From assembly GCA_944384295.1 (NCBI GenBank), contig CALWSU010000010.1, positions 2,061 to 66,060 of the forward strand: a stretch of 64,000 bases of DNA, written 5' to 3'. The DNA comes from an uncultured Lachnospiraceae bacterium (GTDB lineage Bacteria; Bacillota; Clostridia; Lachnospirales; Anaerotignaceae). The notes beneath the pieces are model-generated. The model had not been told where the DNA came from. It saw only the letters and a program-made list of their open reading frames with translations, and searched no databases. Shown here in pieces: positions 4,139 to 57,386 of the stretch. A program made the translations under genes and the position numbers. Every line of letters begins with the position of its first letter. Within the stretch, counting starts at the first letter, position 1.

Positions 4139-4249
4139 GTCATTTCGTCCTCTCTTTTGCCGAAAAATCTTTCCAACGGTTACACATTATACTGCTTTGT
4201 ATTGCGAAAATCAAGCGAATACGCCTGTATTTTCACTTGAAAAGCGTTT

Positions 4250-4535
4250 TAGACTGTAGAAAAAAGTTTTATATTTTTTTCATGAACGCGGAAGGGTTTG
4301 GGGAACAAAGCGTTCCCCAAATTCCATCCGCAGTCGGAATTTATTTCCGACGAGGAAAAGCAGAAATTTCAAGGCTTTTAGCCGATGGAATGCCGCACCC
4401 CGAAAGAGACGGGGGCAGCGAAGCTGACTTTGCGAAGCAAAGTGCTTGACCAGAGCTTTATACTTCTGTCTACTCGTCAAAGGCTTGAATGAAATGAGCC
4501 TTTGACGAAAGGGTGTCGACTTTTTCGACACCCTG
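4250..4535 (+). mobile_element. MITE-like structured repeat, copy 1 (286 bp, carries module B)
   Basis: Ends tagactgtagaaaaa...tttttcgacaccctg; flanked by a 19-bp near-direct repeat tttcacttgaaaagcgttt (4231-4249) / tttcgcttgcaaagcgttt (4536-4554); homologous to four other copies. Confidence 0.85.
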
Positions 4536-4541
4536 TTTCGC

Positions 4542-4570
4542 TTGCAAAGCGTTTATTTTTTGCGTACAAT
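4542..4570 (+). promoter_or_regulatory. Putative sigma-A promoter of nfo-ogt
   Basis: TTGCAA-17 bp-TACAAT; the -35 box lies inside the right target duplication of repeat copy 1. Confidence 0.55.
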
Positions 4571-4605
4571 ACAAAGCAAGAAATGAGAGAAAGGACGAAA
4601 AAATT

Positions 4606-5442
4606 ATGTTTTGGATAGGGTGTCACCTTTCGGCGGCAAAAGGTTATTTGGCAATGGGAAAAGAAGCGGTCAATCTAGGCGCAAATACGTTTCAGTTTTT
4701 TACACGCAATCCGCGCGGCGGAAGCGTAAAACCTTTGGATTTGGACGATATGGCGGCATATCGTGATTTTGCTGCAAAACACAATATCGGTACGATTGTA
4801 GCGCATGCGCCTTATACACTCAATGCCTGTGCAGCAGATGAAAATTTGCAAAGATTTGCATTGCATGTCATGCGAGAAGATTTGGAACGGCTTTCTTTTC
4901 TGCCTGATGTGGTTTATAATTTCCACCCCGGCAGTCATGTCAAGCAAGGCGAAGCAGTAGGGATACAAAAAATCGCCGATTTATTGAACCAAGTATTGCA
5001 GCCAGATACCAAAACGCCTGTTTTGCTGGAAACCATGGCGGGAAAAGGTACAGAAATCGGACGCGAATTTGCACAGTTGCGCGCGATATTGGATAAAGTA
5101 GAGCTTTCTGACAAAATGGGCGTTTGTATGGATACCTGTCATGTATTTGATGCGGGTTATGATATTGTTTCGCATTTAGAGGAAGTCTTGCAGGAATTTG
5201 ATACTGTGATTGGTTTGGAACGGCTCAAAGCGATTCATCTCAATGACAGCAAAAATGCTTTGGGAAGTCATAAAGATAGACATGCTTGTCTGGACGCGGG
5301 AGAAATTGGCATAGAAGCATTGTCTCAAATCATCAATCATCCGAAATTGTGTCATCTACCTTTTGTATTGGAAACGCCAAATGATGCCGCGGGATATGCC
5401 AAAGAAATTGCATGGCTGAAGGAATTAAGAAAGGTTGAGTAA
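4606..5442 (+). CDS. nfo: Endonuclease IV (AP endonuclease)
   Basis: IGCHLS, FQFFTRNPRG, HAPYTLN, NFHPGSH, LLETMAG, CMDTCH, HLNDSK, DRHA, LETP metal ligands; ATG at 4606 after RBS. Confidence 0.95.
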   Translation: MFWIGCHLSAAKGYLAMGKEAVNLGANTFQFFTRNPRGGSVKPLDLDDMAAYRDFAAKHNIGTIVAHAPYTLNACAADENLQRFALHVMREDLERLSFLPDVVYNFHPGSHVKQGEAVGIQKIADLLNQVLQPDTKTPVLLETMAGKGTEIGREFAQLRAILDKVELSDKMGVCMDTCHVFDAGYDIVSHLEEVLQEFDTVIGLERLKAIHLNDSKNALGSHKDRHACLDAGEIGIEALSQIINHPKLCHLPFVLETPNDAAGYAKEIAWLKELRKVE

Positions 5443-5445
5443 GCG

Positions 5446-5928
5446 ATGGAATTGGAAAAAATATGGTTTTATCAAACAAAGATTGGAGAAATTGGAATTG
5501 GAGAAAAGCATGGCGCGATTGTGCGTGTGACATTTGGAAGAGAAATGGGCGGTTTGCCGCCGGATTTTGAAATGGTGGAAACGCCGCTTTTGAAATTAGC
5601 AGCAGTAGAGATTTTAGAATATTTAGCGGGAAAACGAAAAAAATTTGATGTACCACTTGCGCCAGAAGGTACACCGTTTCAAAAAAGCGTATGGACAGCT
5701 TTGCAAACTATACCATATGGCGAAACAGCGACCTATGGCGAAATTGCGGCGGCAGTTGGTAATCCAAAAGCAGCACGCGCAATAGGTCGCGCAAACCATG
5801 ACAATCCAATTGCAATATTGATTCCGTGTCATCGTGTGGTAGGGGCAAATGGGAAATTGACAGGCTATGCCGCAGGATTGGAAATCAAAAAAGCTTTGCT
5901 GGAAATAGAAAAAGAAAATATGCAATGA
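5446..5928 (+). CDS. ogt: Methylated-DNA--protein-cysteine methyltransferase
   Basis: IPYGETATYGEIA, RAIGRAN, active-site IPCHRVV motif. Confidence 0.95.
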   Translation: MELEKIWFYQTKIGEIGIGEKHGAIVRVTFGREMGGLPPDFEMVETPLLKLAAVEILEYLAGKRKKFDVPLAPEGTPFQKSVWTALQTIPYGETATYGEIAAAVGNPKAARAIGRANHDNPIAILIPCHRVVGANGKLTGYAAGLEIKKALLEIEKENMQ

Positions 5929-6027
5929 TAAAAAAGTACGCCTTGCATTTTGGATAGGATACCCACAATGCAGGCGTTATTTTTTGGTTTTACAATAGAT
6001 TCCATATGCAAATGCTTAAAATAATTA

Positions 6028-6256
6028 CAGACTGTAGAAAAACTAGATTTTATATTTTTTCAAGCGCGCGGAAGGGATTGGGAAACGAAGCGTTTCCCAA
6101 ATAGAATCCGCAGTCGGAATTCATTTCCGACGAGGAAAAGTCGAAGTTTCAAGGCTTTTAGCCGATGGAACTTCGAGCTTTATACTTCTGTCTACTCGTC
6201 AAAGGCTTGAATGAAATGAGCCTTTGACGATAGGGTGTCGATTTTTCGACACTCTA
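6028..6256 (+). mobile_element. MITE-like structured repeat, copy 2 (229 bp, minimal form)
   Basis: cagactgtagaaaaa...tttttcgacactcta; flanks ataatta / gtaatta (7 bp, 1 mismatch), the right one containing the stop codon of the aldo/keto reductase. Confidence 0.85.
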
Positions 6257-6260
6257 GTAA

Positions 6261-7100
6261 TTAGAATGTATCTGGGTGATGTCCGCTCCATTGTCCTTGT
6301 GGTGCTGTCATCAAACGGGAAACTTCTTCTGGTGTCAAAGAAAAATCAAAGATATCTAAATTTTCCTGCATGCGCTGTAAAGAAGAAGATTTCGGCAATG
6401 GCAGGATATGCTGTTCCAAAGCAAAACGCAGACAGATTTGTGCAGGTGTTTTTCCATATTTTTGTGCAAGCTCTAGTAAAAATGGGTCGTCTAATGCTTT
6501 TGTACGTCCCAAAGGACTCCATGCTTCTACCAAAAGCCCTTGTGATTGGCAATAGGATACGGCATAAGATTGCGTATAACCAGGGTGAAATTCCAATTGG
6601 TCTACCATAGGCGTGATATTGGCAGCAACCATCAATGGCATCAAGTGATGTGGTAAAAAGTTGCTCACGCCAATGGCGCGCAGTACTTTTTGTTCATATA
6701 ATTTTTCCATAGCATGCCATGCAGAAATTACTTTTTCCGCCCATGCGTCGCGGTCAACTTCAGGCATGGGCCAGTGCAACAGGCACAAATCCAGATAGTC
6801 GGTTTGCAAATCTTGTAAAGATGCTTCTATACTACGCATTGCATCGTCATAAGACAGTGCAGAACGCCATACTTTGGTAGTCAAAAATAAATCTTTTCGG
6901 TCAATCCCTGCGGTACGAATCGCATTGCCTACTTGTGTTTCATTGCCATACATACGCGCGGTGTCTATATGGCGATAGCCTGCCAGCAAAGCAGTGCAAA
7001 GCACGGATTCCGCAGTATCGTCTGTGACTTTGTAAGTGCCAAAACCGATTTTTGGAATTTTTACGCCGTTATATAATGTATAGTATTCTTGTTCTTGCAT
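6261..7100 (-). CDS. Aldo/keto reductase (2,5-DKG reductase-like)
   Basis: IPKIGFGT, GYRHIDTA..Y, LFLTTK, DYLDLCLLHWP, AIGVSNF, QLEFHP, AWSPLG, LPKSS motifs. Confidence 0.92.
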   Translation of the reverse strand: MQEQEYYTLYNGVKIPKIGFGTYKVTDDTAESVLCTALLAGYRHIDTARMYGNETQVGNAIRTAGIDRKDLFLTTKVWRSALSYDDAMRSIEASLQDLQTDYLDLCLLHWPMPEVDRDAWAEKVISAWHAMEKLYEQKVLRAIGVSNFLPHHLMPLMVAANITPMVDQLEFHPGYTQSYAVSYCQSQGLLVEAWSPLGRTKALDDPFLLELAQKYGKTPAQICLRFALEQHILPLPKSSSLQRMQENLDIFDFSLTPEEVSRLMTAPQGQWSGHHPDTF

Positions 7101-7121
7101 ATTATGTTGCCTCCTTCAAAA

Positions 7122-8357
7122 TCATATGTTTTCTGCCATTTGCGCGTATTTTTGATGCGCCAATGACAACAAATATTCTGTTTGGTTGTGGGCTGGTTCT
7201 TCCCATACATCTGCGAGAAGGGCGGATAAAATTTCTCCGATTGCTTTCCCAGCAGGGATACCTTCTGCCATCAATGTTTTGCCATCTATGGCGAGTGTTT
7301 TGAGTGTCAAACAATCACCGCTTGCAAGGATTTCACAAAGCAATGTTTGTGCTTTGTCCGCGCCATTTTGCGGATATAAAATATGTTGTAGTGTGAGTAA
7401 ATCTCGCGTCATATCCGCGCCAATGGTACCCGCAAGACGGCGTAGCTGAGGCTTGGTTTGTGGGGTAGGCTGATGCAGTACACGTAATAAGGTGAGAATA
7501 TATTTTGTAGTTTGGTTATCAAATTTCAGTTTTTTACAAAATTGTTTTGCTTCAGATTCTGTATAACCTTGTAAAACCAATGTCCAACGCAATGCCATAA
7601 CGGCAGGTGCAGCCGAAAGCTGTGTACAAAGCGCATCACCATAATTTGCCAGACGTTCTGCAAACAAAGTGTCGATATGTGGCAATAATCCACTTTCCAA
7701 TAACAACGGCAGACGGTCAGAAAAAGGCGAAAGCCAAAGCTTTGTCAATTCTGTGAAAATGCGTTCCGCGCTGATATGGGCAATCAAAGCGGCATTTTGC
7801 TGTAATGCGGTATAGGTCGCTGGTTCTACGCAAAAACCCAATTGCGCCGCAAAACGTACACAACGCAGCATACGCAAAGCGTCTTCTTGAAACCGTTTGG
7901 CAGGTTCTCCCACGCCGCGGATACATTTTTTGGCAATATCCGCACGTCCCCCAAAAGGGTCTTGAAATCCAATGGCGGGGTGATATGCAATGGCATTCAT
8001 GGTAAAATCACGTCGCAGCAAATCTTCTTTCAGATTGGGGGTAAACTGCACCGAAGTCGGGTGACGGTTGTCCTCATATGCGCCATCAATACGATAGGTT
8101 GTGATTTCGTAATTGGTTTGATGCAGCACAACGGTAATGGTACCATGTTGTATGCCAGTATCAAATGTATGCGCAAATAATGCTTTTGTTTGTTCTGGTA
8201 ATGCAGAAGTGGTGATGTCCCAGTCCTGCGGTGTGCGTCCTAATATACAGTCACGCACACAACCGCCTACAATATAGGCTTCATAGCCATTTTGGCATAA
8301 TGTTTGGAGCAATGTATGCACGTCTTGTGGTATCAATTTGTAATCAATGGCGTTCAT
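7122..8357 (-). CDS. cca: CCA tRNA nucleotidyltransferase
   Basis: YIVGGCVRD, DWDITT, GIQHGT, EDLLRRDFTMNA, RFQEDALRMLR, ISAERI; likely start MNAIDY at 8357. Confidence 0.92.
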   Translation of the reverse strand: MNAIDYKLIPQDVHTLLQTLCQNGYEAYIVGGCVRDCILGRTPQDWDITTSALPEQTKALFAHTFDTGIQHGTITVVLHQTNYEITTYRIDGAYEDNRHPTSVQFTPNLKEDLLRRDFTMNAIAYHPAIGFQDPFGGRADIAKKCIRGVGEPAKRFQEDALRMLRCVRFAAQLGFCVEPATYTALQQNAALIAHISAERIFTELTKLWLSPFSDRLPLLLESGLLPHIDTLFAERLANYGDALCTQLSAAPAVMALRWTLVLQGYTESEAKQFCKKLKFDNQTTKYILTLLRVLHQPTPQTKPQLRRLAGTIGADMTRDLLTLQHILYPQNGADKAQTLLCEILASGDCLTLKTLAIDGKTLMAEGIPAGKAIGEILSALLADVWEEPAHNQTEYLLSLAHQKYAQMAENI

Positions 8358-8545
8358 ATATACTTCATTCCTTTGGTATTTTTGATGGTTGTTCTTCCAA
8401 GCATACATATTATAACATAAATTTGTATCAATAAGATAGAAAGTTTTCGTATAGATGGCTGGTACAAAATCGTTTTTTGCAGAAAAAAGTATTGACAGTA
8501 TGGAAAAATCGTGATAGTATATTTTTTGCAATCTGATAGAAGTAT

Positions 8546-8618
8546 GCGCCCTTAGCTCAGTTGGTAGAGCAACTGACTCTTAATCAGTGGGTCCAGGGTT
8601 CGAGTCCCTGAGGGCGCA
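8546..8618 (+). tRNA. tRNA-Lys (anticodon CTT), CCA not encoded
   Basis: Acceptor stem gcgccct/agggcgc, D arm agctcagttggtagagc, anticodon stem actga/tcagt with loop ctCTTaa, T arm ggttcgagtcc; followed by A then TTT. Confidence 0.95.
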
Positions 8619-8784
8619 TTTTAGAAGCAGTGTTTTTCGGCAAAGTGATGTCGGGGGACGCTGTTTTTTTGTTTATATTTCTTTATTGTATACAAACAAC
8701 TTGCGTCGCCATTCTTGACACCAAATTCCACTCTATTATATGATAATAACAGAAAAGGCATACAAAGCGAAAGAAGGTGGCAGC

Positions 8785-10221
8785 ATGCAGAAAACAAAGC
8801 GGCGAATTGAACATTTTTCCTATTATGATATGGAAGGGATTGCCGAACACCTGCGCAAAATGGCGGCAAAAGGCTGGTATCTGCAAAGTATTACTCCATT
8901 GTATTGGGAATATGAAGCAGATACGCCCAAGCGTGTCAATTATTTTCTGACATTCGGTACACAAGGTATTTTTGGGTATCAGGAAGAAGATTGGACTTAT
9001 GTAACCAATTGGCAAGAGATGGAAATTTACCGTACAGAAGATACTTCTGTGGTGGTGCCGATACAAGATAGCCGCACAAAATTAAAAGCAATCCAAAAAC
9101 AGATGAAACAAAGTTTTGTGCCGATTTATACCTTGGGTATTTTTATGGCATTGTTGTTGCTGTTTTTGCCTTGTTTTGCCATACTGCGGGATTTTTTGAC
9201 ATGGCTGCCAGATGGTGTTTGGATGTTAAGTACATTGTCTGGGGTATTGTTGTTTTTATATACATTTGGACGTTTGCACCAATATCGCAAATGGTGTAAA
9301 CGCTCGAAAGAATGTATGTATCAATATGGCTTATGCGCGCCGGTTTTATTGGGACAACGCCGCAGAACAAAATTGTCATTTTTCAGCACATTAGTGGTAT
9401 TGTTATTTTATAGCATATTGTTGCTGCTGCGCATTGTACCAGATTTGCATATAGAATTTTCGTATGTTTCCATCTTTGCGGGCATATTGCTTTTGGTGTT
9501 TTGTGGCTGGCGCATTTGGGACAAGCATAAACAGCCAATACGAAGTAAGGTACCTTTTCAAAAAGCATATTTGCGTGTGTCCATTGTGGCATTGCTCGTG
9601 CCTGTGTTGTTGTCGGGTGTGATGTATGTAGGAGAAAAGGGCGAATTTCTTCCAAAACGTGCGATAGAAACCGTATCAGTCAAAGAAAGTACCGGTTTGG
9701 TTTCTGAATTTTATGTTTATGATGATACATTGCCTTTGTCTATTGAGGATTTACTGGGGGCACAGGAGGGCAAATATTCCAAGCGGTATCTCATGAAAGG
9801 CTCTATCTTGGCGACATATGCGCGATGCACACAAATGACACCGCCGAATGTGAGTGAATTGCCAAAATTAGAATATGAAATATGGCAGTTTCGAGGACAA
9901 AAACAATTTGAAAATGCTTTAGAATACATGCTTTCTGGCATAAATGTAAATGATGATGAGTTACAAGGGTATCAAACGTTGTTGCTCGACGGTATAGATA
10001 TGGCATATCAGCGGTACTATAGAGAGGAACTTTGCAACGAGTTTTTATTGGTCAAAGATAAAAAAATCGTACATCTGCTGACCAGTTGGGAAATGACACA
10101 AGAACAGTTAGATACAGTCGTATCGAAATTGTTTTTGTCAGAAACAGCAGAAACATCTGAGCCATCTGAAACAGTAGAACAAACCGAACAAACAGATACG
10201 GTATTGCACCCAACCGAATAA
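8785..10221 (+). CDS. DUF2812-like membrane protein
   Basis: N-terminal pattern EHLRKMAAKGWYL...WTYV...EIY followed by about five TM segments and a soluble C-domain; start MQKTKRR after RBS GAAGGTGG. Confidence 0.65.
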   Translation: MQKTKRRIEHFSYYDMEGIAEHLRKMAAKGWYLQSITPLYWEYEADTPKRVNYFLTFGTQGIFGYQEEDWTYVTNWQEMEIYRTEDTSVVVPIQDSRTKLKAIQKQMKQSFVPIYTLGIFMALLLLFLPCFAILRDFLTWLPDGVWMLSTLSGVLLFLYTFGRLHQYRKWCKRSKECMYQYGLCAPVLLGQRRRTKLSFFSTLVVLLFYSILLLLRIVPDLHIEFSYVSIFAGILLLVFCGWRIWDKHKQPIRSKVPFQKAYLRVSIVALLVPVLLSGVMYVGEKGEFLPKRAIETVSVKESTGLVSEFYVYDDTLPLSIEDLLGAQEGKYSKRYLMKGSILATYARCTQMTPPNVSELPKLEYEIWQFRGQKQFENALEYMLSGINVNDDELQGYQTLLLDGIDMAYQRYYREELCNEFLLVKDKKIVHLLTSWEMTQEQLDTVVSKLFLSETAETSEPSETVEQTEQTDTVLHPTE

Positions 10222-10256
10222 AATCTGAATAAAATCTATCAAAAAATCAACCATAC

Positions 10257-10297
10257 AAAAAAACCTGTTGCCGTGAGCAGTGGCAACAGGTTTTTTT
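10257..10297. terminator. Bidirectional intrinsic terminator
   Basis: aaaaacctgttgcc-gtgagcagt-ggcaacaggttttt between convergent genes. Confidence 0.8.
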
Positions 10298-10314
10298 GAT
10301 GCAGATGGAACTGT

Positions 10315-10833
10315 TTATTTGATTGGTGCAAAAGCGCGTATGCGCGGCACAAATGCGACCAGTGCGCGAATCGCTACAATCTCTACAATGCCCATAATCA
10401 AACATTGTACCACACGTGTTGCCATCAAAGGCAGGAAGGGTGAGCCATACAATACACTAATCCAAAATGTATTGAGCAAAAGAGAGCCAATCAATTCTGT
10501 TAGGAATATCACAGCAACAATACGCAACATGGTTTGCTTTTCGTGCAGAAAATAACCATACGCGAATCCTACCAAAAATGCGGTCAGTGTAAATCCGGGA
10601 AAATACTGCCCAATGGGAAACAAAATCGCGCCTAAAAAATCCGCAATTGCGGCAACAATCCCTGCTTGCCATTTGCCCAAATATAACGCAGTCAATACCA
10701 CAGGCACAAAGGCAAAGCCGATTTTCAAATTCCATGCCGCGATGGAGAGAAAGCGCGACAATATGATGTTCAGTGCAATCATCAATGCCATAAAAACAAG
10801 GTGTTGTGTAGAAATTTTACGTGTCGTTGGCAT
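10315..10833 (-). CDS. folT: Folate ECF transporter S component
   Basis: MALMIALNIILSRFLSI...LKIGF...YFPGFTLTA...LLNTFWISVLYG pattern; lies downstream of a THF riboswitch; start MPTTRK at 10833. Confidence 0.9.
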   Translation of the reverse strand: MPTTRKISTQHLVFMALMIALNIILSRFLSIAAWNLKIGFAFVPVVLTALYLGKWQAGIVAAIADFLGAILFPIGQYFPGFTLTAFLVGFAYGYFLHEKQTMLRIVAVIFLTELIGSLLLNTFWISVLYGSPFLPLMATRVVQCLIMGIVEIVAIRALVAFVPRIRAFAPIK

Positions 10834-10949
10834 AAAAAAAGAACCCCCTTTGTTATAAAACCATGTTTCAAACGATAACTGCAAATACCCTTGTCCCAAA
10901 AAACAAGGTTTGCTGTGATAACAAAGAGCGCTCACTTCTTTATTATGAA

Positions 10950-11045
10950 ACAGCGGGATGCGGGTTTTGTATCGCAAGCTATGCTTTTCGTTCCTGTGAC
11001 AACTCCCCGTTCACAAGACACTTAACGCACAAAGCCCTACTCTGT
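10950..11045 (-). ncRNA. THF (tetrahydrofolate) riboswitch
   Basis: Minus strand ACAGAGTAGG...TGCGTTAAGTG...GGGAGTTGTC...ACGAAAAG...TTGCGATA...CCCGCATCCCGCTGT matches the THF aptamer consensus, upstream of folT. Confidence 0.9.
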
Positions 11046-11184
11046 ATTTGCGTCTGTATGACTGGTATCATACAACGCCATTGTAGCACGCATACAAGGG
11101 AAAGTAAAGAGAGAAATCAGAAAAAAGAAAAACGCACAAAATCAGTATGCAAAGATTTTGTGCGTAGATTTTTTTCAATATGTT

Positions 11185-11787
11185 TTATGCTTCGATGGGG
11201 CAAAGCGCAAATGCCACAAGCAGAGATTTGCGAGAGGCAAAAGACCCCGCAAGCGTGATATTGCCCATATCCAAACCGTATGTCTGTGTCAAAGTAGAAA
11301 AAATACGGTCGGTTTCCAAAAAGCCGCCATTGCCAAAATAAAAGCAAATGATGTGGCTGTCTTTGGGCAGTTGGGAAAATTCTGCTTCTGAAAATGCGCG
11401 TATGACTTTGTTTTTGTCTTGGGATAATGTTTGTTTCAAAAAAGAAAGTTCAATATCCAAATGCAAAAACTCCTGTGAGGCATAGTATAATGCTGTCATC
11501 ATTTCTAATAAATCATGCTCGCCCGAAAAAGAAAGTGTCAGTGGAAATTGTGGCTGACAATTTTTTTGTAATGTGCAGATAAACCAAGGTGTGGTATCTG
11601 CGGCAAAAGAAATATGATAGGGGCGTTTTTGCACAATTTCAAAATCGTCTATGGCAAATACCAATGTATTGCCGCTGATTTTGGTGCTGATGGGCAATTT
11701 TCTTTTTTTGAGCTGCGCCTGTAAGGTATCAGACGCGCCATATAACCGCATCCCGTCAGAGTGAAAGCCGAGCATAACAAAAAGCAC
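11185..11787 (-). CDS. Hypothetical protein (start uncertain)
   Basis: 200-aa ORF directly downstream of ychF on the same strand; no family recognised with confidence. Confidence 0.6.
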   Translation of the reverse strand: MLFVMLGFHSDGMRLYGASDTLQAQLKKRKLPISTKISGNTLVFAIDDFEIVQKRPYHISFAADTTPWFICTLQKNCQPQFPLTLSFSGEHDLLEMMTALYYASQEFLHLDIELSFLKQTLSQDKNKVIRAFSEAEFSQLPKDSHIICFYFGNGGFLETDRIFSTLTQTYGLDMGNITLAGSFASRKSLLVAFALCPIEA

Positions 11788-11800
11788 CTCCTGTCACGGA

Positions 11801-14693: not shown

Positions 14694-14760
14694 ACCGTCA
14701 AATAAACCTCCTCTTTCGATTTGACAAAAATTATCAAACAAACCAAAAAATCAAAACTCT

Positions 14761-15053
14761 CAGACTGTAATAAAGTACATTTTTTACTTTTTTCAAGAAT
14801 GCAGAAGGGCTTGGGGAACAATTGTCAACACGTTTGCTGCGCAAACGCCAGCCATAAATGGCTGTCCGCACTTCTTTGCGGTGTGTAGTTCCCCAAATTT
14901 AATCCGCAGTCGGAATTCATTTCCGACGAGGAAAAGCCGAAGTTTCAAGGCTTTTTAGCCGATGGAACTTTGGTTTTATACTTCTGTCTACTCGTCAAAG
15001 GCTTGAATGAAATGAGCCTTTGACGACAGGGTGTCAACTTTTTTGACACCCTG
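14761..15053 (+). mobile_element. MITE-like structured repeat, copy 3 (293 bp, carries module A)
   Basis: cagactgtaataaag...ttttttgacaccctg; perfect 8-bp target duplication aaaactct (14753-14760 / 15054-15061). Confidence 0.88.
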
Positions 15054-15405
15054 AAAACTCTTCCAATTCTTCGTCTGCTTCCAAACGCAACAAAGCGTTT
15101 TCTTCAATAGTACCCAAACGCTCTCCGCTCAGATACCGAATCATAATTGCGTCTGCATCTCCTGTCACGCCATACGTCAATTCGATTCGTTTGGTGCGCA
15201 AAAGTGTTTTTGTTTCAGAACGTATTGCTGCGCAAATGACAGCGTTAATTTCCTGCTTTGTCAAAAAATCCGCCATACGCCCACGTAGTGCGACGGTTTC
15301 TTTTGCCCGTACCAGTTCGATTTCCACATCATAGATGGTAAATTCTTTTGCTTGTTCATACAACAGACAGATTTGTCCGTTTTCGGTTGGTATAGCAACC
15401 CGCAT
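15034..15405 (-). CDS. NifB/NifX family (dinitrogenase Fe-Mo cofactor-binding-like) protein
   Basis: MRVAIPTENG...AKEFTIYDVE, INAVIC, GVTGDAD...YLSG pattern; last six residues are encoded by repeat copy 3. Confidence 0.8.
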   Translation of the reverse strand: MRVAIPTENGQICLLYEQAKEFTIYDVEIELVRAKETVALRGRMADFLTKQEINAVICAAIRSETKTLLRTKRIELTYGVTGDADAIMIRYLSGERLGTIEENALLRLEADEELEEFSGCQKS

Positions 15406-15574
15406 ACACGCCACCGCCTTTCTGTTTGTATTGTATCCGTAGAAATAGGGAATTGTCAAATTTTCGTATAAAAATTTTTGCCTAATTCGTCAAAAAAGGG
15501 TACAATAATGTACGATACAAATAGAAGGATATAGCAAGGAAAAAATTTTTGTATCACAGGAAAGGAGATTTTTT

Positions 15575-16711: not shown

Positions 16712-16742
16712 ATGTCCCTAAGTTTTTTGACTTGTGGGACAT
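16712..16742. terminator. Hairpin/terminator duplicated on both sides of repeat copy 4 (second copy 16974-17005)
   Basis: atgtccctaagttttttgacttgtgggacat with self-complementary ends, between convergent genes. Confidence 0.65.
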
Positions 16743-16973
16743 CAGATTGTAGAAAAAGTATATCTTTTACTTTTTTTCAAGAACGCGGAAGGGTTTGGGA
16801 AACGAAGCGTTTCCCAAATTTAATCCGCAGTCGGAATTCATTTCCGACGAGGAAAAGCCGAAGTTTCAAGGACTTTAGACGATGGAACTTCGGCTTTATA
16901 CTTCTGTCTACTCGTCAAAGGCTTGAATGCAATGAGCCTTTGACGACAGGGTGTCGACTTTTTCGGCACCCTG
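16743..16973 (+). mobile_element. MITE-like structured repeat, copy 4 (231 bp, minimal form)
   Basis: cagattgtagaaaaa...tttttcggcaccctg; flanked by a 31/32-bp direct repeat differing by one C. Confidence 0.9.
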
Positions 16974-17012
16974 ATGTCCCCTAAGTTTTTTGACTTGTGG
17001 GACATATTCTTT

Positions 17013-38417: not shown

Positions 38418-38499
38418 ACAGAACACCGATATAAGCCAATAGAAACCAACATTGACAGCAATCCCAAAGCGTGGTATGCTGAACACACAACGATATATT

Positions 38500-38580
38500 T
38501 TTTGCTGGGGGTGCCGGATACAATCGGCTGAGAAATACCCTTTTTCACCTGATCTGGATCATACCAGCGTAGGGAAGCAT
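38500..38580 (+). ncRNA. TPP riboswitch
   Basis: GGGGTGCC...GGCTGAGA..TACCC...ACCTGATCTGGATCATACCAGCGTAGGGAA, followed by terminator gcgcagc...gctgcgc-TTTTT, upstream of thiD. Confidence 0.95.
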
Positions 38581-38683
38581 GAGAAAATGCAGAGCAGGCG
38601 CAGCAAAGGCGAAATTTTTTCGTAGCTGCGCTTTTTCTATGGAAAAAAAGAATAGTCAGGAAACAGAATAGGAGGAACGCAAT

Positions 38684-49797: not shown

Positions 49798-50153
49798 TGT
49801 GGGGCGTTTTGATTGCCGCCGTATTTGCCGGCATCATCAGCGGTATGGGGATTGGCGGCGGTGTATTGCTGATTCCCGCGCTGTTGTTTTTGACAGACTT
49901 GAATCAACAGCAAGTACAAGGCGTCAATTTATTATATTTTTTGCCAACTGCCATCATTGCGCTGGTACAGCATGTGCGTGCAAAACGTGTGCGTATGGAA
50001 ATCGCAAAGCCTTTGCTTGCCGTAGGCTGGCTGGGGGCATTGGGTGGCGCTGCATTAGCAGTGTGGCTGGATGCGACACTGTTGCGGCGCATCTTTGGCG
50101 GTTTTCTTTTTGTGATGGGCTGGATGGAGCTTTGCAAACGCAAACCGATGTAA
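49794..50153 (+). CDS. Sulfite exporter TauE/SafE family, half protein 2
   Basis: GIISGMGIGGGVLLIPAL, QGVNLLYF, GALGGAALA; ATGA overlap with half 1. Confidence 0.85.
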   Translation: MMWGVLIAAVFAGIISGMGIGGGVLLIPALLFLTDLNQQQVQGVNLLYFLPTAIIALVQHVRAKRVRMEIAKPLLAVGWLGALGGAALAVWLDATLLRRIFGGFLFVMGWMELCKRKPM

Positions 50154-50230
50154 GAACGATATAAAACCGATACAAAACCCACATAAAACCCATATCTAAC
50201 CAATAAAAACCAGAAAGGAGCAGGCAATGT

Positions 50231-50401
50231 ATGGACTATTCTAAATTTGAACAACTCAAGAAAAAATTTGCAAAAGCCAATACAGATGAAAAAGTGTCGT
50301 TATATGTCAATACGCCGGATTTGACAAAAGACCAATACCGCGAATTGCTCGAAATGTATCCAAAAAGTGAATGGAACTTGCTGGACCAAGCATTGTGGTA
50401 A
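50231..50401 (+). CDS. Small protein (56 aa) below the ORF-track cutoff
   Basis: RBS AAGGAG; MDYSKFEQLKKKFAKANTDEKVSLYVNTPDLTKDQYRELLEMYPKSEWNLLDQALW. Confidence 0.7.
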   Translation: MDYSKFEQLKKKFAKANTDEKVSLYVNTPDLTKDQYRELLEMYPKSEWNLLDQALW

Positions 50402-50668
50402 AAAATCTGTATGAGATATGGTATCAAAATCTCTTGCGTCTGCTCAGATGCAGGAGATTTTTTTCATCCATTTGCGCAATCAACGCATATTTTCCAGATG
50501 AAAATACCGTTTTTTGGAATATTATTTTTCGCAACGGTTCATACTGCATATCGTAGGCAAGGATTGTTTTTGTTGGTTTCCATTTTCCGCCAAATCTGAT
50601 ATAATACGTTTTACATAGAAAGCAATACAGAGAGAAAAAGGAACAAAGCGAAAAAACGCAGAAAGGCG

Positions 50669-51052
50669 GTGTATCTGGTGCGTATTGCAGAAGAATTATA
50701 TGTAGCAAAAAATATAGAAAATTTAGGTACCATTGTATACAGCCTGCGTCGAGATATTCCGGTTTTTCGGCTGTATTGTTTGGTGGTGCGTACAAAGCGT
50801 GCGCGTCTGGAGATTGTATCGTCTAAATATTTATTTCAAACAAAATATACAAATTATGCAAAAACAGATGGTTGTATTGTAGGTGTTGCAATGGGGTATC
50901 AGGAAGCACTGGAACTTTTGTGCTTTATTGTCCGTCAAGCGATGGCGGAAGGTCACGATTTGCGCACTCCCATCAGTTGGTTTGATATAGAATGTGATTG
51001 TGATAAAGAAGGGAAAGAAATTGCAGAATCAAGAGAAGAAACACTTTCATAA
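50669..51052 (+). CDS. Hypothetical protein
   Basis: 127-aa ORF, GTG start after AAGGCGG; first of a co-oriented run. Confidence 0.6.
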   Translation: MYLVRIAEELYVAKNIENLGTIVYSLRRDIPVFRLYCLVVRTKRARLEIVSSKYLFQTKYTNYAKTDGCIVGVAMGYQEALELLCFIVRQAMAEGHDLRTPISWFDIECDCDKEGKEIAESREETLS

Positions 51053-51743
51053 TATCGGTGCGAAAGTTTTGGCGTTTGCGGCGGCTTTGGCATTGATGCC
51101 AGCATTGCTGTTGTCTTGTGTCGCATGGCGCGTGATGGACGATTTGCCGTATTTTGAACAGGAATATACAAAATACGCGGTGCCGGAAACCGTGCATATG
51201 GATATGACAGAATTACTACGCGTCACAGAGCATATGATGGCATATTTGGGAGGCGAGACAGATTCTTTGCAAATAGAAGCCCAAATAGATGGTGTGCAAA
51301 CCCCATTTTTTAGTGAGAAAGAAATTCGCCATATGGTAGATGTACAGGAGTTGTTCGCAAAAGGTACGATACTGCGCAATGTATGTTTTGTTTTTTTTGT
51401 ATTGGTAGCGGTTGGGCTTTTGTTTAGCCATAAAACAGAAATCCTTTTGCGCCAATTGCGTTGGGGGATTGTGGTCTTTTTTGCGCTTGCGCTTGCCTTC
51501 CTTGGCTTGATACTGACGGATTTCAATCGTTATTTTACCATATTTCATCTGATATTCTTTGATAATCAAGATTGGATTTTGGACCCGTCGGTAGACCGAT
51601 TGATCAATTTAGTGCCGTTAGGCTTTTTCTTTGATACGGTGCTTTGGATTGTAGGCGTGTTTGTTGCCTGCAATGTGGTGTTGTTTGTAGGGGCAAGCCT
51701 GCTGCTGCGCCGTTTTGGAAAGAAACAAATACAGCAATCTTAG
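51021..51743 (+). CDS. TIGR01906/DUF1461 family membrane protein (Lit-like)
   Basis: FFSEKEIRHMVDV..LF, FTIFHLIFF.N..WILDP..D.LI.L.P..FF; start codon uncertain. Confidence 0.82.
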   Translation: MQNQEKKHFHNIGAKVLAFAAALALMPALLLSCVAWRVMDDLPYFEQEYTKYAVPETVHMDMTELLRVTEHMMAYLGGETDSLQIEAQIDGVQTPFFSEKEIRHMVDVQELFAKGTILRNVCFVFFVLVAVGLLFSHKTEILLRQLRWGIVVFFALALAFLGLILTDFNRYFTIFHLIFFDNQDWILDPSVDRLINLVPLGFFFDTVLWIVGVFVACNVVLFVGASLLLRRFGKKQIQQS

Positions 51744-51779
51744 TGTAATCATAGTTCAATCATAGATGGGAGTCAAACG

Positions 51780-52841
51780 ATGGGAATTTTGCTATTATTA
51801 CTCAAGTGCATTGGTATCTTGCTTTTGGCATTGCTGGTATTTTTGCTTTTGGTAGTCCTGATTGTGCTTTGTACTCCGATACGATACGCATGCTCAGCGG
51901 AAAAAACAACCACTTACCATATGCAGGCAGAAGTACGCTGGCTGTTTTCCAGATTGTGTTTGCATGGGGAAACAGGGCAGGAATGGCAAACAGAAATATT
52001 TTTGTTTGGCAAACCATTAGACGCTTGGAAAAAGAAAAAACGAAACAAACGAAGCAGCAAGAAAAAACAAGAAACAATGTTGACGGTCAGAGAAAAGACA
52101 GTCAAAAACACAGAAAAAGATACAGAAAAAAATACAGAAAGTAAGCAAACACCAAAAGAAATACAAAAGCCGACATCAGATACATCTCATCATGCAGAAG
52201 TATCAGAGCGACCACCGATGCAAAAACGAGAAGAACCACAAGTCGTACAGCAAAAGGCAGTCGAATCGGAAACAGTCAAACAAAAACAGCCAAAACAGCC
52301 AAAACAGTCTAAGCAGTCTGCACAGCCAAAACAAGGCATACGACGCGTCAAGCTGTCTGAAATAGAGGAAGAACCGCCGCAAAAGGAAGATTTATGGGAG
52401 GAGGACGCCTCTTTTTTCACTGGGGAACCACAAGAAACGCAGGAAAAGGAAGCAGAAGGTTTTTCATGGAAAAAAACGCTGTTGCAAATTGAGGATAAAA
52501 AAGGGATTTGCAAGGCAGTGATACGCTTATTGCGTCGCTTGGCAAAAGGGATTTTGCCGCATCAATTGGCATTTCGTGGGACTTTGGGTACAGGCGACCC
52601 TGTTATGACGGGGTATTTGTTGGCGGTATTTGGTATACTCAAAGGGAAATTTGGGAAAAATTTGGTTGTGCGTGGAGATTTTTCGCGTATGTGCGCGGAA
52701 GATTTATCTATTTCAGTAAAAGGAAAAATCGTATTAGGATATTTATGCTATGCTATGGCGGCATTTGTGCTGACAAAACCAGTACGCCATTTGATACAAA
52801 TTTTATGGAAAGGAAGAAAGCAAAATGGGGAAAGCATTTAA
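51780..52841 (+). CDS. DUF2953 (YtfI-like) protein
   Basis: N-terminal TM, charged low-complexity middle, C-terminal GTGDPVMTGYL motif; upstream of ytfJ-like gene. Confidence 0.78.
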   Translation: MGILLLLLKCIGILLLALLVFLLLVVLIVLCTPIRYACSAEKTTTYHMQAEVRWLFSRLCLHGETGQEWQTEIFLFGKPLDAWKKKKRNKRSSKKKQETMLTVREKTVKNTEKDTEKNTESKQTPKEIQKPTSDTSHHAEVSERPPMQKREEPQVVQQKAVESETVKQKQPKQPKQSKQSAQPKQGIRRVKLSEIEEEPPQKEDLWEEDASFFTGEPQETQEKEAEGFSWKKTLLQIEDKKGICKAVIRLLRRLAKGILPHQLAFRGTLGTGDPVMTGYLLAVFGILKGKFGKNLVVRGDFSRMCAEDLSISVKGKIVLGYLCYAMAAFVLTKPVRHLIQILWKGRKQNGESI

Positions 52842-53223
52842 TGAGTCATTAGACGTATTATTTGGAAAGGTAGATGAATTGGTTTCTACAAAGACAGTGG
52901 TAGGAGATGCCATTGAGATGGACGGGCTGACATTGCTGCCTTTGATTGAGGTAGGCGTGGGCGTTGGTCTGGGTGGAAAAGAAGATGGCGGCTCTGCTGG
53001 TGGTATGGGCGCAAGAATCACGCCTTCTGCCGTATTAGCAATACAAAATGGCAGTGTACAGCTCATCAATATCAAAAATCAAGATGCAGTCAGCAAATTG
53101 ATTGATATGGCGCCTGGTGTAGTCAATAAACTCAATTTCGGTGCAATTTTCAGTGGACGCGAGAAAAAGGAACCGACTGAAAATACAGTCAAATTTGAAG
53201 AAGAACTGGTGGTAGAAGATTGA
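52825..53223 (+). CDS. GerW/YtfJ family sporulation protein
   Basis: TKTVVGDAI...LLPLIEVGVGVGLGG...GGMGARITPSAVL motif. Confidence 0.88.
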   Translation: MGKAFNESLDVLFGKVDELVSTKTVVGDAIEMDGLTLLPLIEVGVGVGLGGKEDGGSAGGMGARITPSAVLAIQNGSVQLINIKNQDAVSKLIDMAPGVVNKLNFGAIFSGREKKEPTENTVKFEEELVVED

Positions 53224-53245
53224 CGAAGCAAAGGGGGGAACCTCT

Positions 53246-54439
53246 ATGTCTGTTTTGTTGGAATATTATGATAAAGATGTATTAAAAAATATTGTAGGCG
53301 TATTGACATTGCGCCCAGAAAAAGTGATTTTTTTGTATGACAACGGCATGCGCGACATGACAGCATTTCGTGCATTGCGTACTTGCTTTGCGCGACATTT
53401 GCCAGATTTGGTGATAGAAACCTGTGCGGTAGAAAGTACATCTATGGATAAGATTTACCGCCGCACGTTGCAAGTACTGCAAGCACATAACGACTGTACC
53501 ATAGAATTGACGGGCGGTAGTGAATTGATGGTTATTGCTGGATTTCGTGCAGGTATGGAAAGCGGCGCAAGATTGGTGCATACCGATTTGGTGGGGCATT
53601 GTGTCAAAGACTTATTGAGCGATGCTGTGATTGCAAAAACGGCTACGCTGTCTTTAGAAGATTTTGTAGACGCGAGAGGGGCTTGTTTTGTAGGGGAGTC
53701 ACATCGCCCACCTATGCCGGAACGATATGACGCCATTTGGCAGATGGCGCGCTATTTATTCCGACATCTTTCAGAATGGAAAACGACTTGCAGCTATCTG
53801 CAAACGGTAGCTGCACGATATTTGCCCCATGAAGTCTATATGGACAGCAAAGAACAGATTTATATGAAAAGTGGGAAAAAAGTTTCCCCGAATCGAGAGA
53901 TACTCAAAGAGTTTCAACGGTTAGGCTTTATCAGAAATTTGGTGATGACACAGGATAGAGTCCATTTTTCTTTCTGTTCTGTGGAAGACCGCAGTTATTG
54001 TACAGGATATGGGGTATGGCTGGAATTATATGTATACATAGCAGCCGCGCGTTCGGGCGTATTTGATGATGTCAAGTTGGGAACGATGATTGACTGGAAT
54101 GCGTATGATGGTGTGGTGGTGGCTGGCAACGAAATAGATGTGATTTTGATGGAAAAATCCCTGCCTGTCTTTATTTCCTGCAAACTGCGCAATGCAGATA
54201 CTGCCGCGCTCAATGAATTGCTGATTGCCAAAAAAAGGGTAGGCGGTTGGTTTTCCAAAGGTGTTTTGGTCACATTCAGTCGAGAAAAGGTGGAGCATAG
54301 CGGTACCTATCAACGAGCAAAAGAATTGGGGCTGGAGATGTTAGACGCCGCAGATATATTATCCGAAGATTTTGGCGCGCGTTTGGTCAAGACCATACAA
54401 GAACATGATTTGGTCAGCTTAAAGTGGAAAAAAGTCTAA
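53246..54439 (+). CDS. DUF1887 / Card1-Can2-like CARF plus PD-(D/E)xK nuclease-fold protein
   Basis: N-terminal LLEYYDKD.LKNI...RPEKVIFL and IELTGGSELM (CARF-like); C-terminal GVWLELYV...NEIDV...FISCK...ALNEL; 397 aa. Confidence 0.75.
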   Translation: MSVLLEYYDKDVLKNIVGVLTLRPEKVIFLYDNGMRDMTAFRALRTCFARHLPDLVIETCAVESTSMDKIYRRTLQVLQAHNDCTIELTGGSELMVIAGFRAGMESGARLVHTDLVGHCVKDLLSDAVIAKTATLSLEDFVDARGACFVGESHRPPMPERYDAIWQMARYLFRHLSEWKTTCSYLQTVAARYLPHEVYMDSKEQIYMKSGKKVSPNREILKEFQRLGFIRNLVMTQDRVHFSFCSVEDRSYCTGYGVWLELYVYIAAARSGVFDDVKLGTMIDWNAYDGVVVAGNEIDVILMEKSLPVFISCKLRNADTAALNELLIAKKRVGGWFSKGVLVTFSREKVEHSGTYQRAKELGLEMLDAADILSEDFGARLVKTIQEHDLVSLKWKKV

Positions 54440-54487
54440 AAAATAATGACAATAATGACAATGCAATAATGCGGAAGGACGATAGGT

Positions 54488-55087
54488 ATGGCTAAAAAAA
54501 ACACACGCAATACCAAAAGCCGTATCATAGCGGCAGCATGGAAATTGTTTTATGAGCAAGGGTATGATGATACGACAGTAGAGGAAATCGTCGAAAAATC
54601 GGGTACATCAAAAGGCTCCTTTTATCATTATTTCAATGGCAAAGATGCTTTGCTAGGTTCTTTGTCTGAGTTGTTTGACGATAAGTATACGGAATTGATG
54701 AAAACATTGCCGCAGGATATGCACTGTTTCGACCAATTGATGTATTTGAATCAAGAAATGTTTCGTATGATTGATGACAGCATTTCTTTGGATTTATTGG
54801 CGCGCCTATATTCTTCCCAGTTGATTACAAGCGGAGAACGGCATTTGATGGACCATAATCGTGTATACTATAAATTATTGCGCCAGATTACGGCAGAAGG
54901 ACAACGCAGGGGAGAATTGCGCGAAGACATATCGGTCAATGAATTTGTCAAAACGTATGCGTTGTGTGAACGTGCGCTGATTTATGACTGGTGTTTGTGT
55001 CGAGGGGAATATTCTTTGAGTCGATATGCGGCGCAGATGATGCCATGTTTTTTGGGTGGTTTTCGCGCGGAACCTTCCGATTCCTAA
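54488..55087 (+). CDS. TetR/AcrR family transcriptional regulator
   Basis: IIAAAWKLFYEQGYDDTTVEEIVEKSGTSKGSFYHYFNGKDALL HTH. Confidence 0.93.
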   Translation: MAKKNTRNTKSRIIAAAWKLFYEQGYDDTTVEEIVEKSGTSKGSFYHYFNGKDALLGSLSELFDDKYTELMKTLPQDMHCFDQLMYLNQEMFRMIDDSISLDLLARLYSSQLITSGERHLMDHNRVYYKLLRQITAEGQRRGELREDISVNEFVKTYALCERALIYDWCLCRGEYSLSRYAAQMMPCFLGGFRAEPSDS

Positions 55088-55419
55088 AGAAAAATTTTAA
55101 ATAAAAATCAAGTGAAATGGTATGGTATATTTCTATGTACTTGTAAAAATACAATATTGACTTATTAGAAGGTTTGTCTGAAGCAGATGCAGGATTGCAT
55201 CTGCTTTCGTTAGTTTCGCACAATGGCAAAAGGCTTTTTCTGGTTTGCAATGTATGCTTACGCAAATCGGATTTGGCATTGACAGATTTTCTATTTTGTG
55301 GTTTCATGTTACGTAAGTTTTGTATGAAAATAAATACAAAACAGTACAAAAGAAAAAATGCACAAGAACAAAAAACAAAAGAGAACTACAAAAAAGAGAT
55401 ACAAAGGAGGAAATGACAT

Positions 55420-56604
55420 ATGGTGCGTTATGCGAAACGAATGGAACAACTGACAAATTCTGACATTGGTGAACTGCTAAAATTGATTGCACAGCCGGAT
55501 ATCATTTCCTTTGCGGGTGGTTTGCCAGCAGCGGAATTATTCCCTGTCGAACAACTGCGTCAAGCATGTAATCATGTGATGGACGAAGTGGGGCGTGTCG
55601 CATGCCAATATTCCGCAACAGAAGGTTTGCCGGCACTGCGCGAAAAAATCGCCCAAAGAATGAAAGAAAAAAATAATATCGAAACAGATGCAGAACATAT
55701 TCTGATTACGAGTGGTTCTCAGCAGGGATTGGATTTTTCGGGACGTGTATTTCTGGATAAAGGCGATGTAGTGCTAATGGAAAGCCCTTCTTATCTAGGC
55801 GCAATCAATGCATTCAAAGCATGTGAGCCAACCTTTCTAGAAGTGCCGACAGATGATGACGGTATGGTGATGGAAGAACTCGAAAAAATACTGCAAACCA
55901 CAGAAAATGTCAAAATGATATATGTGATTCCAGATTTCCAAAATCCGACAGGACGTACATGGTCTTTGGAACGCAGACAGAAATTTATGGAAATCATCAA
56001 TCGTTATGAAATTCCGGTCATTGAAGATAACCCATATGGGGAACTGCGTTTTGAAAATGAAGATATGCCTGCACTGAAGTCTTTGGATACAAAAGGTCTG
56101 GTTGTATTTTTGGGTACATTCTCAAAAATTCTGGTGCCTGGCTACCGTTTGGGCTGGGTATGTGCTTCGGATGAAATACTATCTATGTATAATTTCATCA
56201 AGCAAGGCGCAGACTTGCAGACACCTACAGTGACACAGCTGGAAGTCAATGCTTATATAGATTTGTTTGATTTGGACGCACATGTAGACAAAATCCGTGA
56301 ACTGTATCGTCATAGACGGGATGTCATGATGCAGGCAATGGAAGAATACTTCCCCAAAGAAGCAAAATTCACACACCCTGACGGCGGTTTGTTTACATGG
56401 GTAGAACTGCCGGATTATATCAATACACGTGATATGGCATTGCAATGTCTGCAAAAGAAAGTGGCATATGTGCCCGGCGGCAGTTTCTTCCCCAATGGTG
56501 GGCAGGAAAACTGTTTCCGTATGAATTATTCTTGTATGCCAGATGAAAAGATAGTAGAAGGTGTCAAAGCGATTGCAGAAGTCATTCGCGCGAATCTGAA
56601 ATAA
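55420..56604 (+). CDS. PLP-dependent aminotransferase class I/II (LysN-like), paralog 1
   Basis: ISFAGG.P, TSGSQQGLD, PDFQNPTG, EDNPY, GTFSKIL.PG.RLGW, GG.F.W, FRMNYS. Confidence 0.92.
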   Translation: MVRYAKRMEQLTNSDIGELLKLIAQPDIISFAGGLPAAELFPVEQLRQACNHVMDEVGRVACQYSATEGLPALREKIAQRMKEKNNIETDAEHILITSGSQQGLDFSGRVFLDKGDVVLMESPSYLGAINAFKACEPTFLEVPTDDDGMVMEELEKILQTTENVKMIYVIPDFQNPTGRTWSLERRQKFMEIINRYEIPVIEDNPYGELRFENEDMPALKSLDTKGLVVFLGTFSKILVPGYRLGWVCASDEILSMYNFIKQGADLQTPTVTQLEVNAYIDLFDLDAHVDKIRELYRHRRDVMMQAMEEYFPKEAKFTHPDGGLFTWVELPDYINTRDMALQCLQKKVAYVPGGSFFPNGGQENCFRMNYSCMPDEKIVEGVKAIAEVIRANLK

Positions 56605-56742
56605 ATCATTTGTTTGACTGATTTTTGGTAGGGACTGCCCCTCCTTGTATTGCATTTTTGCATATGAGGAGGGGTTTTTCTATTTTTTTTGACGAAAATT
56701 TATCAGAATAAAATAGTATATATTGTATTTCAAAATATACAG

Positions 56743-57094
56743 TAGATTGTAGAAAAGTACATTTTTTACTTTTTTCAAGAACGCGGAAGGGTTTGGGGAA
56801 CCAATGTCAACACGTTTGCTATGCAAACGCCAGCCATAAATGGCTGTCCGCACTTCTTTGCGGTGTGTAGTTCCCCAAATTCAATCCGCAGTCGGAATTT
56901 ATTTCCGACGAGGAAAAGCCGAAGTTTCAAGGCTTTTTAGCCGATGGAATGCCGCACCCCGAAAGAGACGGGGGCAGCGAAGCTGACTTTGCGAAGCAAA
57001 GTGCTTGACCAGAGCTTTATACTTCTGTCTATTCGTCAAAGGCTTGAATGAAATGAGCCTTTGACGACAGGGTGTCGATTTTTTCGACACCCTG
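56743..57094 (+). mobile_element. MITE-like structured repeat, copy 5 (352 bp, modules A and B)
   Basis: tagattgtagaaaag...ttttttcgacaccctg; flanks gtatatattgtatttcaaaatatacag / atgtattttgtatttaaaaatatacag (27 bp, 4 mismatches). Confidence 0.88.
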
Positions 57095-57386
57095 ATGTAT
57101 TTTGTATTTAAAAATATACAGAATGGCAAAGGTAAATACGCACAAAGCGCGGATTATGCGCAAATACTGCAAAAAATGCAGGTGTACCCCATTTTTTATA
57201 AGCAAAATTTAATATCAAAATGGAAAAATTGCCCATTGACTTTGTGAATTATTTGTGTTTTAATAAAGAAAAGATGATAATTTTTAGTCATTTGTCTGAT
57301 ATGCGTGCCAAAGTGCGCACGTTGTCAGAGAACAAGCAAAACAATTGTAATTTATTGTAATCTATACATATAAGGAGGAGTTTCCC

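Follow-up and report, generated by a model that had tools for sequence, protein, structure and literature searches.

The 64-kb window analysed here, that is, the whole stretch of DNA under study, lies on contig C10 of a genome assembled as 73 contigs (G000; 2.31 Mb, 39% G+C; hereafter the home genome) and carries five related non-coding elements, all on the plus strand. Copy 1 (286 bp) spans positions 4250..4535, copy 2 (229 bp) 6028..6256, copy 3 (293 bp) 14761..15053, copy 4 (231 bp) 16743..16973 and copy 5 (352 bp) 56743..57094. A preliminary interpretation made from the letters of the window (hereafter the sequence-only reading) had described five homologous elements with these limits; all are there, and they align end to end over their whole length (alignment A1). 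Copies 2 and 4 consist of a core of ~229-231 nt, and two optional internal blocks account for the size differences among the five. Module A, of ~63 nt, is carried by copies 3 (~14821-14887) and 5 (~56803-56869), where it is lodged in the second hairpin's loop; module B, of ~58 nt net, lies within the fourth stem and is present in copies 1 (~4391-4453) and 5 (~56950-57012). The family has no conserved coding capacity, since any reading frame is disrupted by numerous insertions and deletions (indels) and by the two optional modules (63 and 58 nt). The inverted ends are imperfect and extend over ~15 bp (CAGACTGTMRAAAAA / CAGGGTGTCGAAAAA). As had been noticed, the left end, CAGACTGTAGAAAAA, resembles the right end read in reverse complement, CAGGGTGTCGAAAAA, with agreement at 12 of 15 positions; taken alone, the right end forms a perfect hairpin (CAGGGTGTCGA-loop-TCGACACCCTG). 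Transposases of the IS1182, IS4/IS5, ISL3, IS200 and IS110 types are absent from the window, in agreement with the sequence-only reading, and the only matches to such enzymes in the genome are on other contigs.

All five copies are bordered by direct repeats. Copy 1 is flanked by 19-bp repeats with two mismatches between the sides, TTTCACTTGAAAAGCGTTT on the left (4231..4249) and TTTCGCTTGCAAAGCGTTT, a small hairpin, on the right (4536..4554). Copy 3 is flanked by an exact 8-bp repeat, AAAACTCT (14753-14760 and 15054-15061). Copy 4 lies between two copies of one hairpin, of 31 bp on the left (16712..16742; ATGTCCCTAAGTTTTTTGACTTGTGGGACAT) and, with one additional C, of 32 bp on the right (16974..17005). 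The repeats around copy 5 are a diverged sequence of 26 bp (56717..56742) and an imperfect palindrome of 27 bp, ATGTATTTTGTATTTAAAAATATACAG (57095..57121). The repeat lengths previously listed for these four copies (19, 8, 31 and about 27 bp) were thus recovered; that of copy 2, given as 7 bp, had to be corrected to 6 bp (TAATTA, at 6022-6027 and, with one spare base, 6258-6263).

Conspecific metagenome contigs, retrieved by exact-protein look-ups of genes of the window, revealed the state of these sites before insertion. Copy 1 is missing from three contigs (L051, L053 and L058) and present in three others (L052, L056 and L057). The empty allele reads ...TTTCGCTTGCAAAGCGTTT-ATTTTTTGCG..., and contains the 19-mer once only. 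Likewise, copy 5 is missing from L066, L068 and L072 and present in L067 and L069-L071, the empty allele containing a single ATGTATTTTGTATTTAAAAATATACAG (27 bp). The presence of one flanking repeat, and not two, in the contigs devoid of copy 1 or copy 5 proves that the elements inserted with duplication of the target, as the sequence-only reading had supposed. Copies 2, 3 and 4 are present in every conspecific contig seen, copy 2 in all eight of the contigs shown that reach its site. Where insertions are polymorphic (copies 1 and 5), the duplication on the right does not differ from the empty allele, and that on the left (which in copy 1 has two changes relative to that allele) and the 20-50 bp leftward of it carry clustered substitutions (window 4100-4250 and 56690-56742, compared with L051 and L066 in alignments A2 and A3). 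Error-prone repair at one of the junctions could explain the cluster, as could a recombination boundary or chance.

Other species of the genus were informative for copies 3 and 4 in a less direct manner, the flanks being only 70-85% identical, and exact empty sites for these two copies were not found there. Copy 3 overlies the 3′ end of a minus-strand gene of the Nitro_FeMo-Co family (window 15034-15061), and the stop codon of the corresponding open reading frame (ORF; 15034-15459) now lies inside the right end of the element. In other species the genes flanking copy 3 are ~19 bp apart and lack the element, the orthologue of this gene directly adjoining its neighbour. In two other species, the peptidase gene orthologous to the one upstream of copy 4 is followed by a single terminator hairpin, of different sequence. 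In one conspecific contig (L061:1100-1500), a single element has on its left the left flank of a home-genome copy at C1:162086 and on its right the sequence that follows window copy 3; either two copies have recombined or the assembly is chimeric at the repeat.

The five elements belong to a large family. Profile searches of the home genome with nhmmer, based on the leftmost 62 and rightmost 81 nt of the element, detected 58 left ends and 71 right ends, which combine into 47 end-to-end pairs. One of these pairs continues beyond the end of its contig. In another three or four, an end has decayed, and these were excluded from later alignments. With ~23 further ends that are partial or located at contig ends, the total comes to ~70 copies, which bears out the earlier expectation of many copies per genome; the ends found at contig ends indicate that the repeat breaks the assembly. 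The flanking repeats and the pairing of ends are far beyond chance. Copies fall into size classes near 229, 291 and 352 bp, and one measures 472 bp; the latter (C17:30405-30876) contains module A twice in tandem in addition to module B. Some internal copies are shortened or decayed. The element begins with CAG in 31 of 45 copies and with TAG in 7, and ends with CTG in 32 of 45 and with CTA in 9. Pairwise identity between copies has a median of 89.5% and reaches 99.6% in the closest pair. This pair and the insertions that differ between strains show that the family has been active recently.

In 46 copies with both flanks available, an ungapped repeat immediately adjacent to the ends was looked for. 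Thirty-seven of them were positive, 18 with duplications of 4-13 bp and 19 with duplications of 19-37 bp. The nine remaining copies went unscored by the ungapped method, and inspection by eye showed that in five of them indels interrupt a long hairpin repeat, which measures 44 bp in one case; overall, duplication sizes range from 4 to 44 bp. All of the long duplications fold as terminator-like hairpins, with the limits of the stem matching those of the repeat. The loops of the duplicated hairpins are asymmetric, which shows that the two copies are direct and not inverted. In 42 of 45 copies an A immediately follows the right end, and in 29 of 45 a T immediately precedes the left end. In the closest pair, one member is flanked by a 23-bp hairpin duplication and the other by a 7-bp duplication; thus, a single element lineage makes both kinds. 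A preference for palindromic or hairpin targets is apparent among the home-genome copies, 28% of which reside in convergent intergenic regions, compared with 13% of all intergenic regions.

A transposase with the appropriate ends was sought among 401 genomes of the order by means of NCBIfam model NF033551 (DUF772 + DDE_Tnp_1 + DDE_Tnp_1_6; cut-off 270 bits). The IS1182 family was present in 108 of them. One clade of insertion sequences (ISs) of 1.5-1.7 kb, with transposases of 468-500 amino acids scoring 400-470 bits, has ends like those of the element (L075-L079, L083, L085-L087 and L090). In L075-L079, L083, L085 and L086 these ends read CAGACTGTAGACAAAG(T) or a one-base variant, in L090 CAGACTGTCGAAAAAG / CAGACTGTAGAAAAAC and in L087 CAGTCTGTCAAWAAA; a further form found in the IS1182 family of the order is CAGTCTGTCAAAAAA. 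Two home-genome copies of the element (C24:16561 and C56:4475) start with exactly CAGACTGTAGACAAAG, matching the IS end at 16 of 16 positions. Around four of the ISs (L076, L077, L085 and L087), a whole hairpin of 22-35 bp occurs as a direct repeat, once on each side, ending in T in all four cases and beginning with A in three; the remaining ISs examined adjoin a hairpin on at least one side. Closer to the window, a congeneric genome (G008) contains an internally deleted IS1182 copy. Of the model, residues 19-85 and 431-485 remain in this copy, whose DNA is 77-80% identical to that of L090. The end of this relic, AGGGTGTCGAAAAAGTC, equals the right end of the element at 17 of 17 positions.

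A juxtaposition of the two kinds of element was found in G036, a genome from another family of the order, where an intact IS and a homologous 237-bp element lie in tandem (L087:1389-3190, on contig C1 of G036). A single hairpin of 25-29 bp occurs three times here, between the two and on either outer side, an arrangement that looks like the outcome of successive hits on the same hairpin. The 237-bp element has 82 matching segments in G036, corresponding to roughly 40 copies, and its copies in this genome and in a congeneric one are also bordered by hairpin duplications. An IS1182 gene accompanies the sister element family in the same genome in G036, G272 and G449.

Taken together, the element has the features of a miniature transposable element with inverted repeats (MITE): it is short and non-coding, has terminal inverted repeats, duplicates its target, is dispersed in copies that vary between strains and shares its ends with an autonomous element, the latter found outside the home assembly. 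We consider it very probable, from these sequence comparisons, that the family is a MITE moved in trans by a DDE transposase of the IS1182 family. This is what the sequence-only reading had put forward, and the proposal is now supported by IS1182-family ISs of the same order with the same ends and duplicated hairpins and by the 17/17 match of the G008 relic; that it was an enzyme of this type, rather than another, that moved the copies of the window is presumed from the same data. The transposase would bind terminal inverted repeats of ~16 bp, of type CAGRSTGTMGAMAAAG, and both ends of the element would be joined to the target by staggered cuts. On an ordinary duplex target, the stagger would range from a few to ~13 bp. 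On a hairpin or cruciform target, typically an intrinsic terminator, the joins would be made at the outer (5′) feet of the stem, and gap repair would then copy the entire hairpin to both sides. If the cuts have this cruciform, stem-foot geometry, as we infer, the size of the duplication would be set by the hairpin and not by the enzyme.

A number of observations weigh against this interpretation. Profile searches identified no DUF772 or IS1182-type gene in the home genome, no intact IS1182-family transposase gene was found in any of the 15 genomes of the genus, and the home genome contains no longer copy with the same ends around an ORF. The transposase with shared ends for which the sequence-only reading had asked was found in related genomes of the order and not in the home assembly. 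The absence from the home genome is weak evidence because the assembly, 91.5% complete, includes no contig shorter than 3171 bp, and a collapsed IS contig of 1.6 kb would be missing from it. Similarity between element and ISs is limited to the ~16-19 terminal bases of each IS end; hence, the element does not derive by simple deletion from any of the ISs examined, and descent by internal deletion is not supported. Co-occurrence of element and IS1182 genes at the genome level is weak: in family f13, the IS is present in 11 of 32 element-positive and 3 of 22 element-negative genomes, and in the family of the window (f1) in 2 of 32 and 3 of 21, respectively, that is, with no association. These figures are compatible with orphaned MITEs and incomplete assemblies, yet they provide no positive support. 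Modest similarity of ends is not diagnostic by itself, since the A-rich ends of an unrelated IS6-family element of the home genome match the element end at 11 of 16 positions, and a scan of five relatives with a degenerate end pattern was too noisy for use. Finally, an IS1182 clade with a 569-amino-acid transposase (L016 type), which was the first to be met with similar ends (CAGACTGTCCGAAAAC), is flanked by G-runs and not by hairpins; for this reason and because of its 2-kb contigs, shared between two metagenome-assembled genomes, it was set aside as the direct partner. Members of this clade (L023-L035), with ends SAGACTGTCCGAAAAC, always have G-run flanks (GGG / IS / N GGGGGG). An identical 2008-bp contig with an IS of this type has been assigned to two metagenome-assembled genomes, labelled Clostridia and Bacteroidia.

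The body of the element was analysed with RNAalifold on an alignment of 40 home-genome copies. The prediction comprises five local hairpins with 58 pairs; 98.7% of the paired cells are canonical, 34 extra pair types occur and 13 pairs show double (compensatory) changes. When the partner was slid by 1-3 columns as a control, pairing fell to 33-53% and double-change pairs to 1-3. Paired columns have 1.19 substitutions each, unpaired columns 4.55. The sister family keeps the same architecture with compensatory changes, for example GTCGGAA/TTCCGAC to GGAGGAA/TTCCTCC, so that the fold is common to two bacterial families. The body of the element is thus a chain of hairpins kept by compensatory changes, with the proviso that the copies derive from few source lineages and that the covariation counts represent non-independent events. 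On the plus strand, G-T cells outnumber A-C cells by 112 to 12. C>T exceeds G>A in unpaired columns as well, which makes this strand signal partly mutational and weakens the case for strand-specific selection. In co-directional intergenic regions, 17 copies are in the sense and 8 in the antisense orientation, a weak bias. Promoter and terminator scans of two copies yielded nothing above chance. A conserved TTTAGN-17-TATACT motif directed towards the right end (window 16874-16902 and equivalents) bears a weak resemblance to a sigma-70-type promoter (9 of 12 positions), also not above chance.

Presumably, the internal hairpins aid transposition or render the insert harmless to the host. A more specific version of this idea is that the chain acts as a single-strand structure, either top-strand DNA during transposition or sense RNA produced by read-through of the interrupted terminator, and that it is needed for recognition by a structure-seeking IS1182 transposase or for restoring termination and insulation at disrupted sites. 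We regard this as a tentative suggestion and would sooner bet against it; if true, the family would constitute a natural set of a hundred sites on which to study a DDE transposase that reads the shape of DNA and not its sequence. Somewhat less probable still, and in our view unlikely, is that the host retains the element chiefly as a structured non-coding RNA or DNA with a function, for example in transcript stabilisation, termination or insulation, transposition being only the means of its spread. Its conservation could be read in this way: the nearly complete pairing, the excess of compensatory pairs over the slid controls, the low substitution rate of paired columns and the architecture maintained across two bacterial families would all suit a host function, as would the strand asymmetry and the excess of sense copies. 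However, insertions vary between strains with no sign of being needed, and no Rfam family corresponds to the element; the strand asymmetry is in part mutational, the bias in orientation is weak, and with few source lineages the covariation may reflect selection for the ability to transpose.

The long duplications also brought to mind transposases of other families that target and duplicate inverted repeats, such as an IS30-type enzyme like that of IS1630 from Mycoplasma fermentans, whose duplications, according to the account in PMC2853133 (citing Calcutt et al. 1999), are long and variable (19-26 bp) and occur at inverted repeats. The lack of an IS1182 gene in the home genome would fit such an origin as well. 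Nevertheless, we judge it very improbable, given that the ends of the element match IS1182-family ends at 16/16 and 17/17 positions and that the rve-domain matches of the home genome consist of an IS6-family transposase (NF033587, 160 bits) and a fragment that looks IS3-type by eye, neither of them IS30 and neither with the ends of the element. The perfect hairpin at the right end and the choice of hairpin targets might further suggest a derivative of a hairpin-ended single-strand transposon (IS200/IS605 type) or a hairpin-guided IS110-type element. Such families have neither target duplications nor terminal inverted repeats, whereas the duplications seen here are proved by the empty sites. 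In the home genome, no Y1 transposase was found, the sole IS110-type match lies far below the cut-off within a 1435-amino-acid ORF, and a TnpB-like fragment on contig C73 was recognised by eye only. This origin appears the least probable of all, to the point of being negligible, and mobilisation by an IS1182-family transposase remains the interpretation that we favour.

Other transposases of the home genome were considered and rejected as partners. The only DDE_Tnp_1 match is an IS5-family element at a contig end (C25:1-860) with different ends, TAGGGCGTATCTGAAAAGT; its two overlapping ORFs suggest a putative frameshift-type transposase. Identical inverted 20-mers on contig C73 turned out to represent two inverted IS6-family copies and not a longer copy of the element. 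In this segment (C73:1457-4420), two inverted IS6-family transposase genes (NF033587, 160 bits), one of them partial, surround 1.3 kb with two small ORFs, which would be compatible with a compound transposon or an invertible segment. The IS3-type fragment mentioned above, recognised by eye, is also on C73.

BLAST searches with both element types scored 32 of 53 sampled genomes in the family of the window and 32 of 54 in one other family, and almost none elsewhere in the order; within the genus, the element is present in 10 of 14 other species. With occurrence in ~60% of the sampled genomes of two families, genome annotators and RNA-motif hunters will keep meeting it. It also breaks short-read assemblies, many contigs of the home genome ending inside it, and it alters the 3′ ends of genes, as does copy 3, and duplicates terminators.

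Among known bacterial repeats, Correia/NEMIS, BOX, RUP and ERIC are, like this element, small, abundant, intergenic and able to fold as hairpins, and BOX shares its modular construction. Some miniature repeats are mobilised in trans by a known IS family, an example being RUP, by IS630-Spn1. Correia and RUP make fixed short duplications (TA) and other such repeats none, and they are not known to be hairpin-seeking, unlike the element described here. The element has no sequence similarity to Correia/NEMIS, BOX, RUP or ERIC, as judged by a negative Rfam search: no family matched at the gathering score, and relaxing E to 10 produced chance-level matches only (E >=1), on copy 5. Plasmid and phage records had no blastn match to the element either. 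Hence, neither Rfam nor these records were found to include it, in line with the sequence-only reading, whose description of the element as undescribed holds for its sequence family and fails for the kind of element and its behaviour, both of which were already known.

Indeed, hairpin targeting by IS1182-family ISs has been published, and the element is a further documented example and not a new kind of element. In Clostridium botulinum group III and C. novyi-NT, ISs of the ISCbo5/ISBma2 type, described as "surrounded" by their target hairpin, occupy hairpin-forming inverted repeats that lie where genes end and are probably terminators; ISCbo5, of the IS1182 family, thus inserts at terminator hairpins in clostridia (PMC3098183). 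The likeness lies in the family, which is that of the partner proposed here, and in the hairpin insertion sites, and the ISs of the L075-L090 group behave alike and share the ends of the element. Compared through the published description, ISs of the ISCbo5/ISBma2 type differ in being autonomous, 1.5-1.7 kb long and endowed with a transposase gene, whereas the element is 229-352 bp, has no ORF, has a body of multiple hairpins with optional modules and is far more numerous, with ~70 copies per 2.3 Mb. In staphylococci, IS1272 and TnSha1, also of the IS1182 family, target hairpins or terminators without primary-sequence specificity and follow a deleting pathway in which part of the hairpin is deleted or replaced and no duplication is made (PMC4923244, PMC5678879). 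They share with the system inferred here the targeting of hairpins and the family of DDE transposase. The element differs from them in duplicating the entire hairpin, the outcome predicted by pathway b of the model for IS1272 (PMC5678879), and in making ordinary short duplications where the target is not a hairpin. For inverted repeats duplicated at long and variable lengths, the classical case is IS1630 (Calcutt, Lavrrar & Wise 1999, cited in PMC2853133), as portrayed in the citing paper an autonomous member of the IS30 family (rve domain). Its ends are unrelated to those of the element, and no IS30-type gene was found in the home genome. The mechanism of IS1182-family transposition was listed as unknown in the table of a 2018 review (PMC6199540), and hairpin target choice in the family has been documented mainly for a few ISs. 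The present family offers dozens of insertion sites per genome from a single lineage, comprising short-duplication sites, whole-hairpin sites and exact empty alleles, so that one can test directly whether duplication size is dictated by the hairpin.

Besides the elements, the window contains, as its only Rfam matches, a tetrahydrofolate (THF) riboswitch at 10949-11046 on the minus strand (92 bits), a thiamine pyrophosphate (TPP) riboswitch at 38497-38592 on the plus strand (70 bits) and one tRNA at 8546-8618 on the plus strand.

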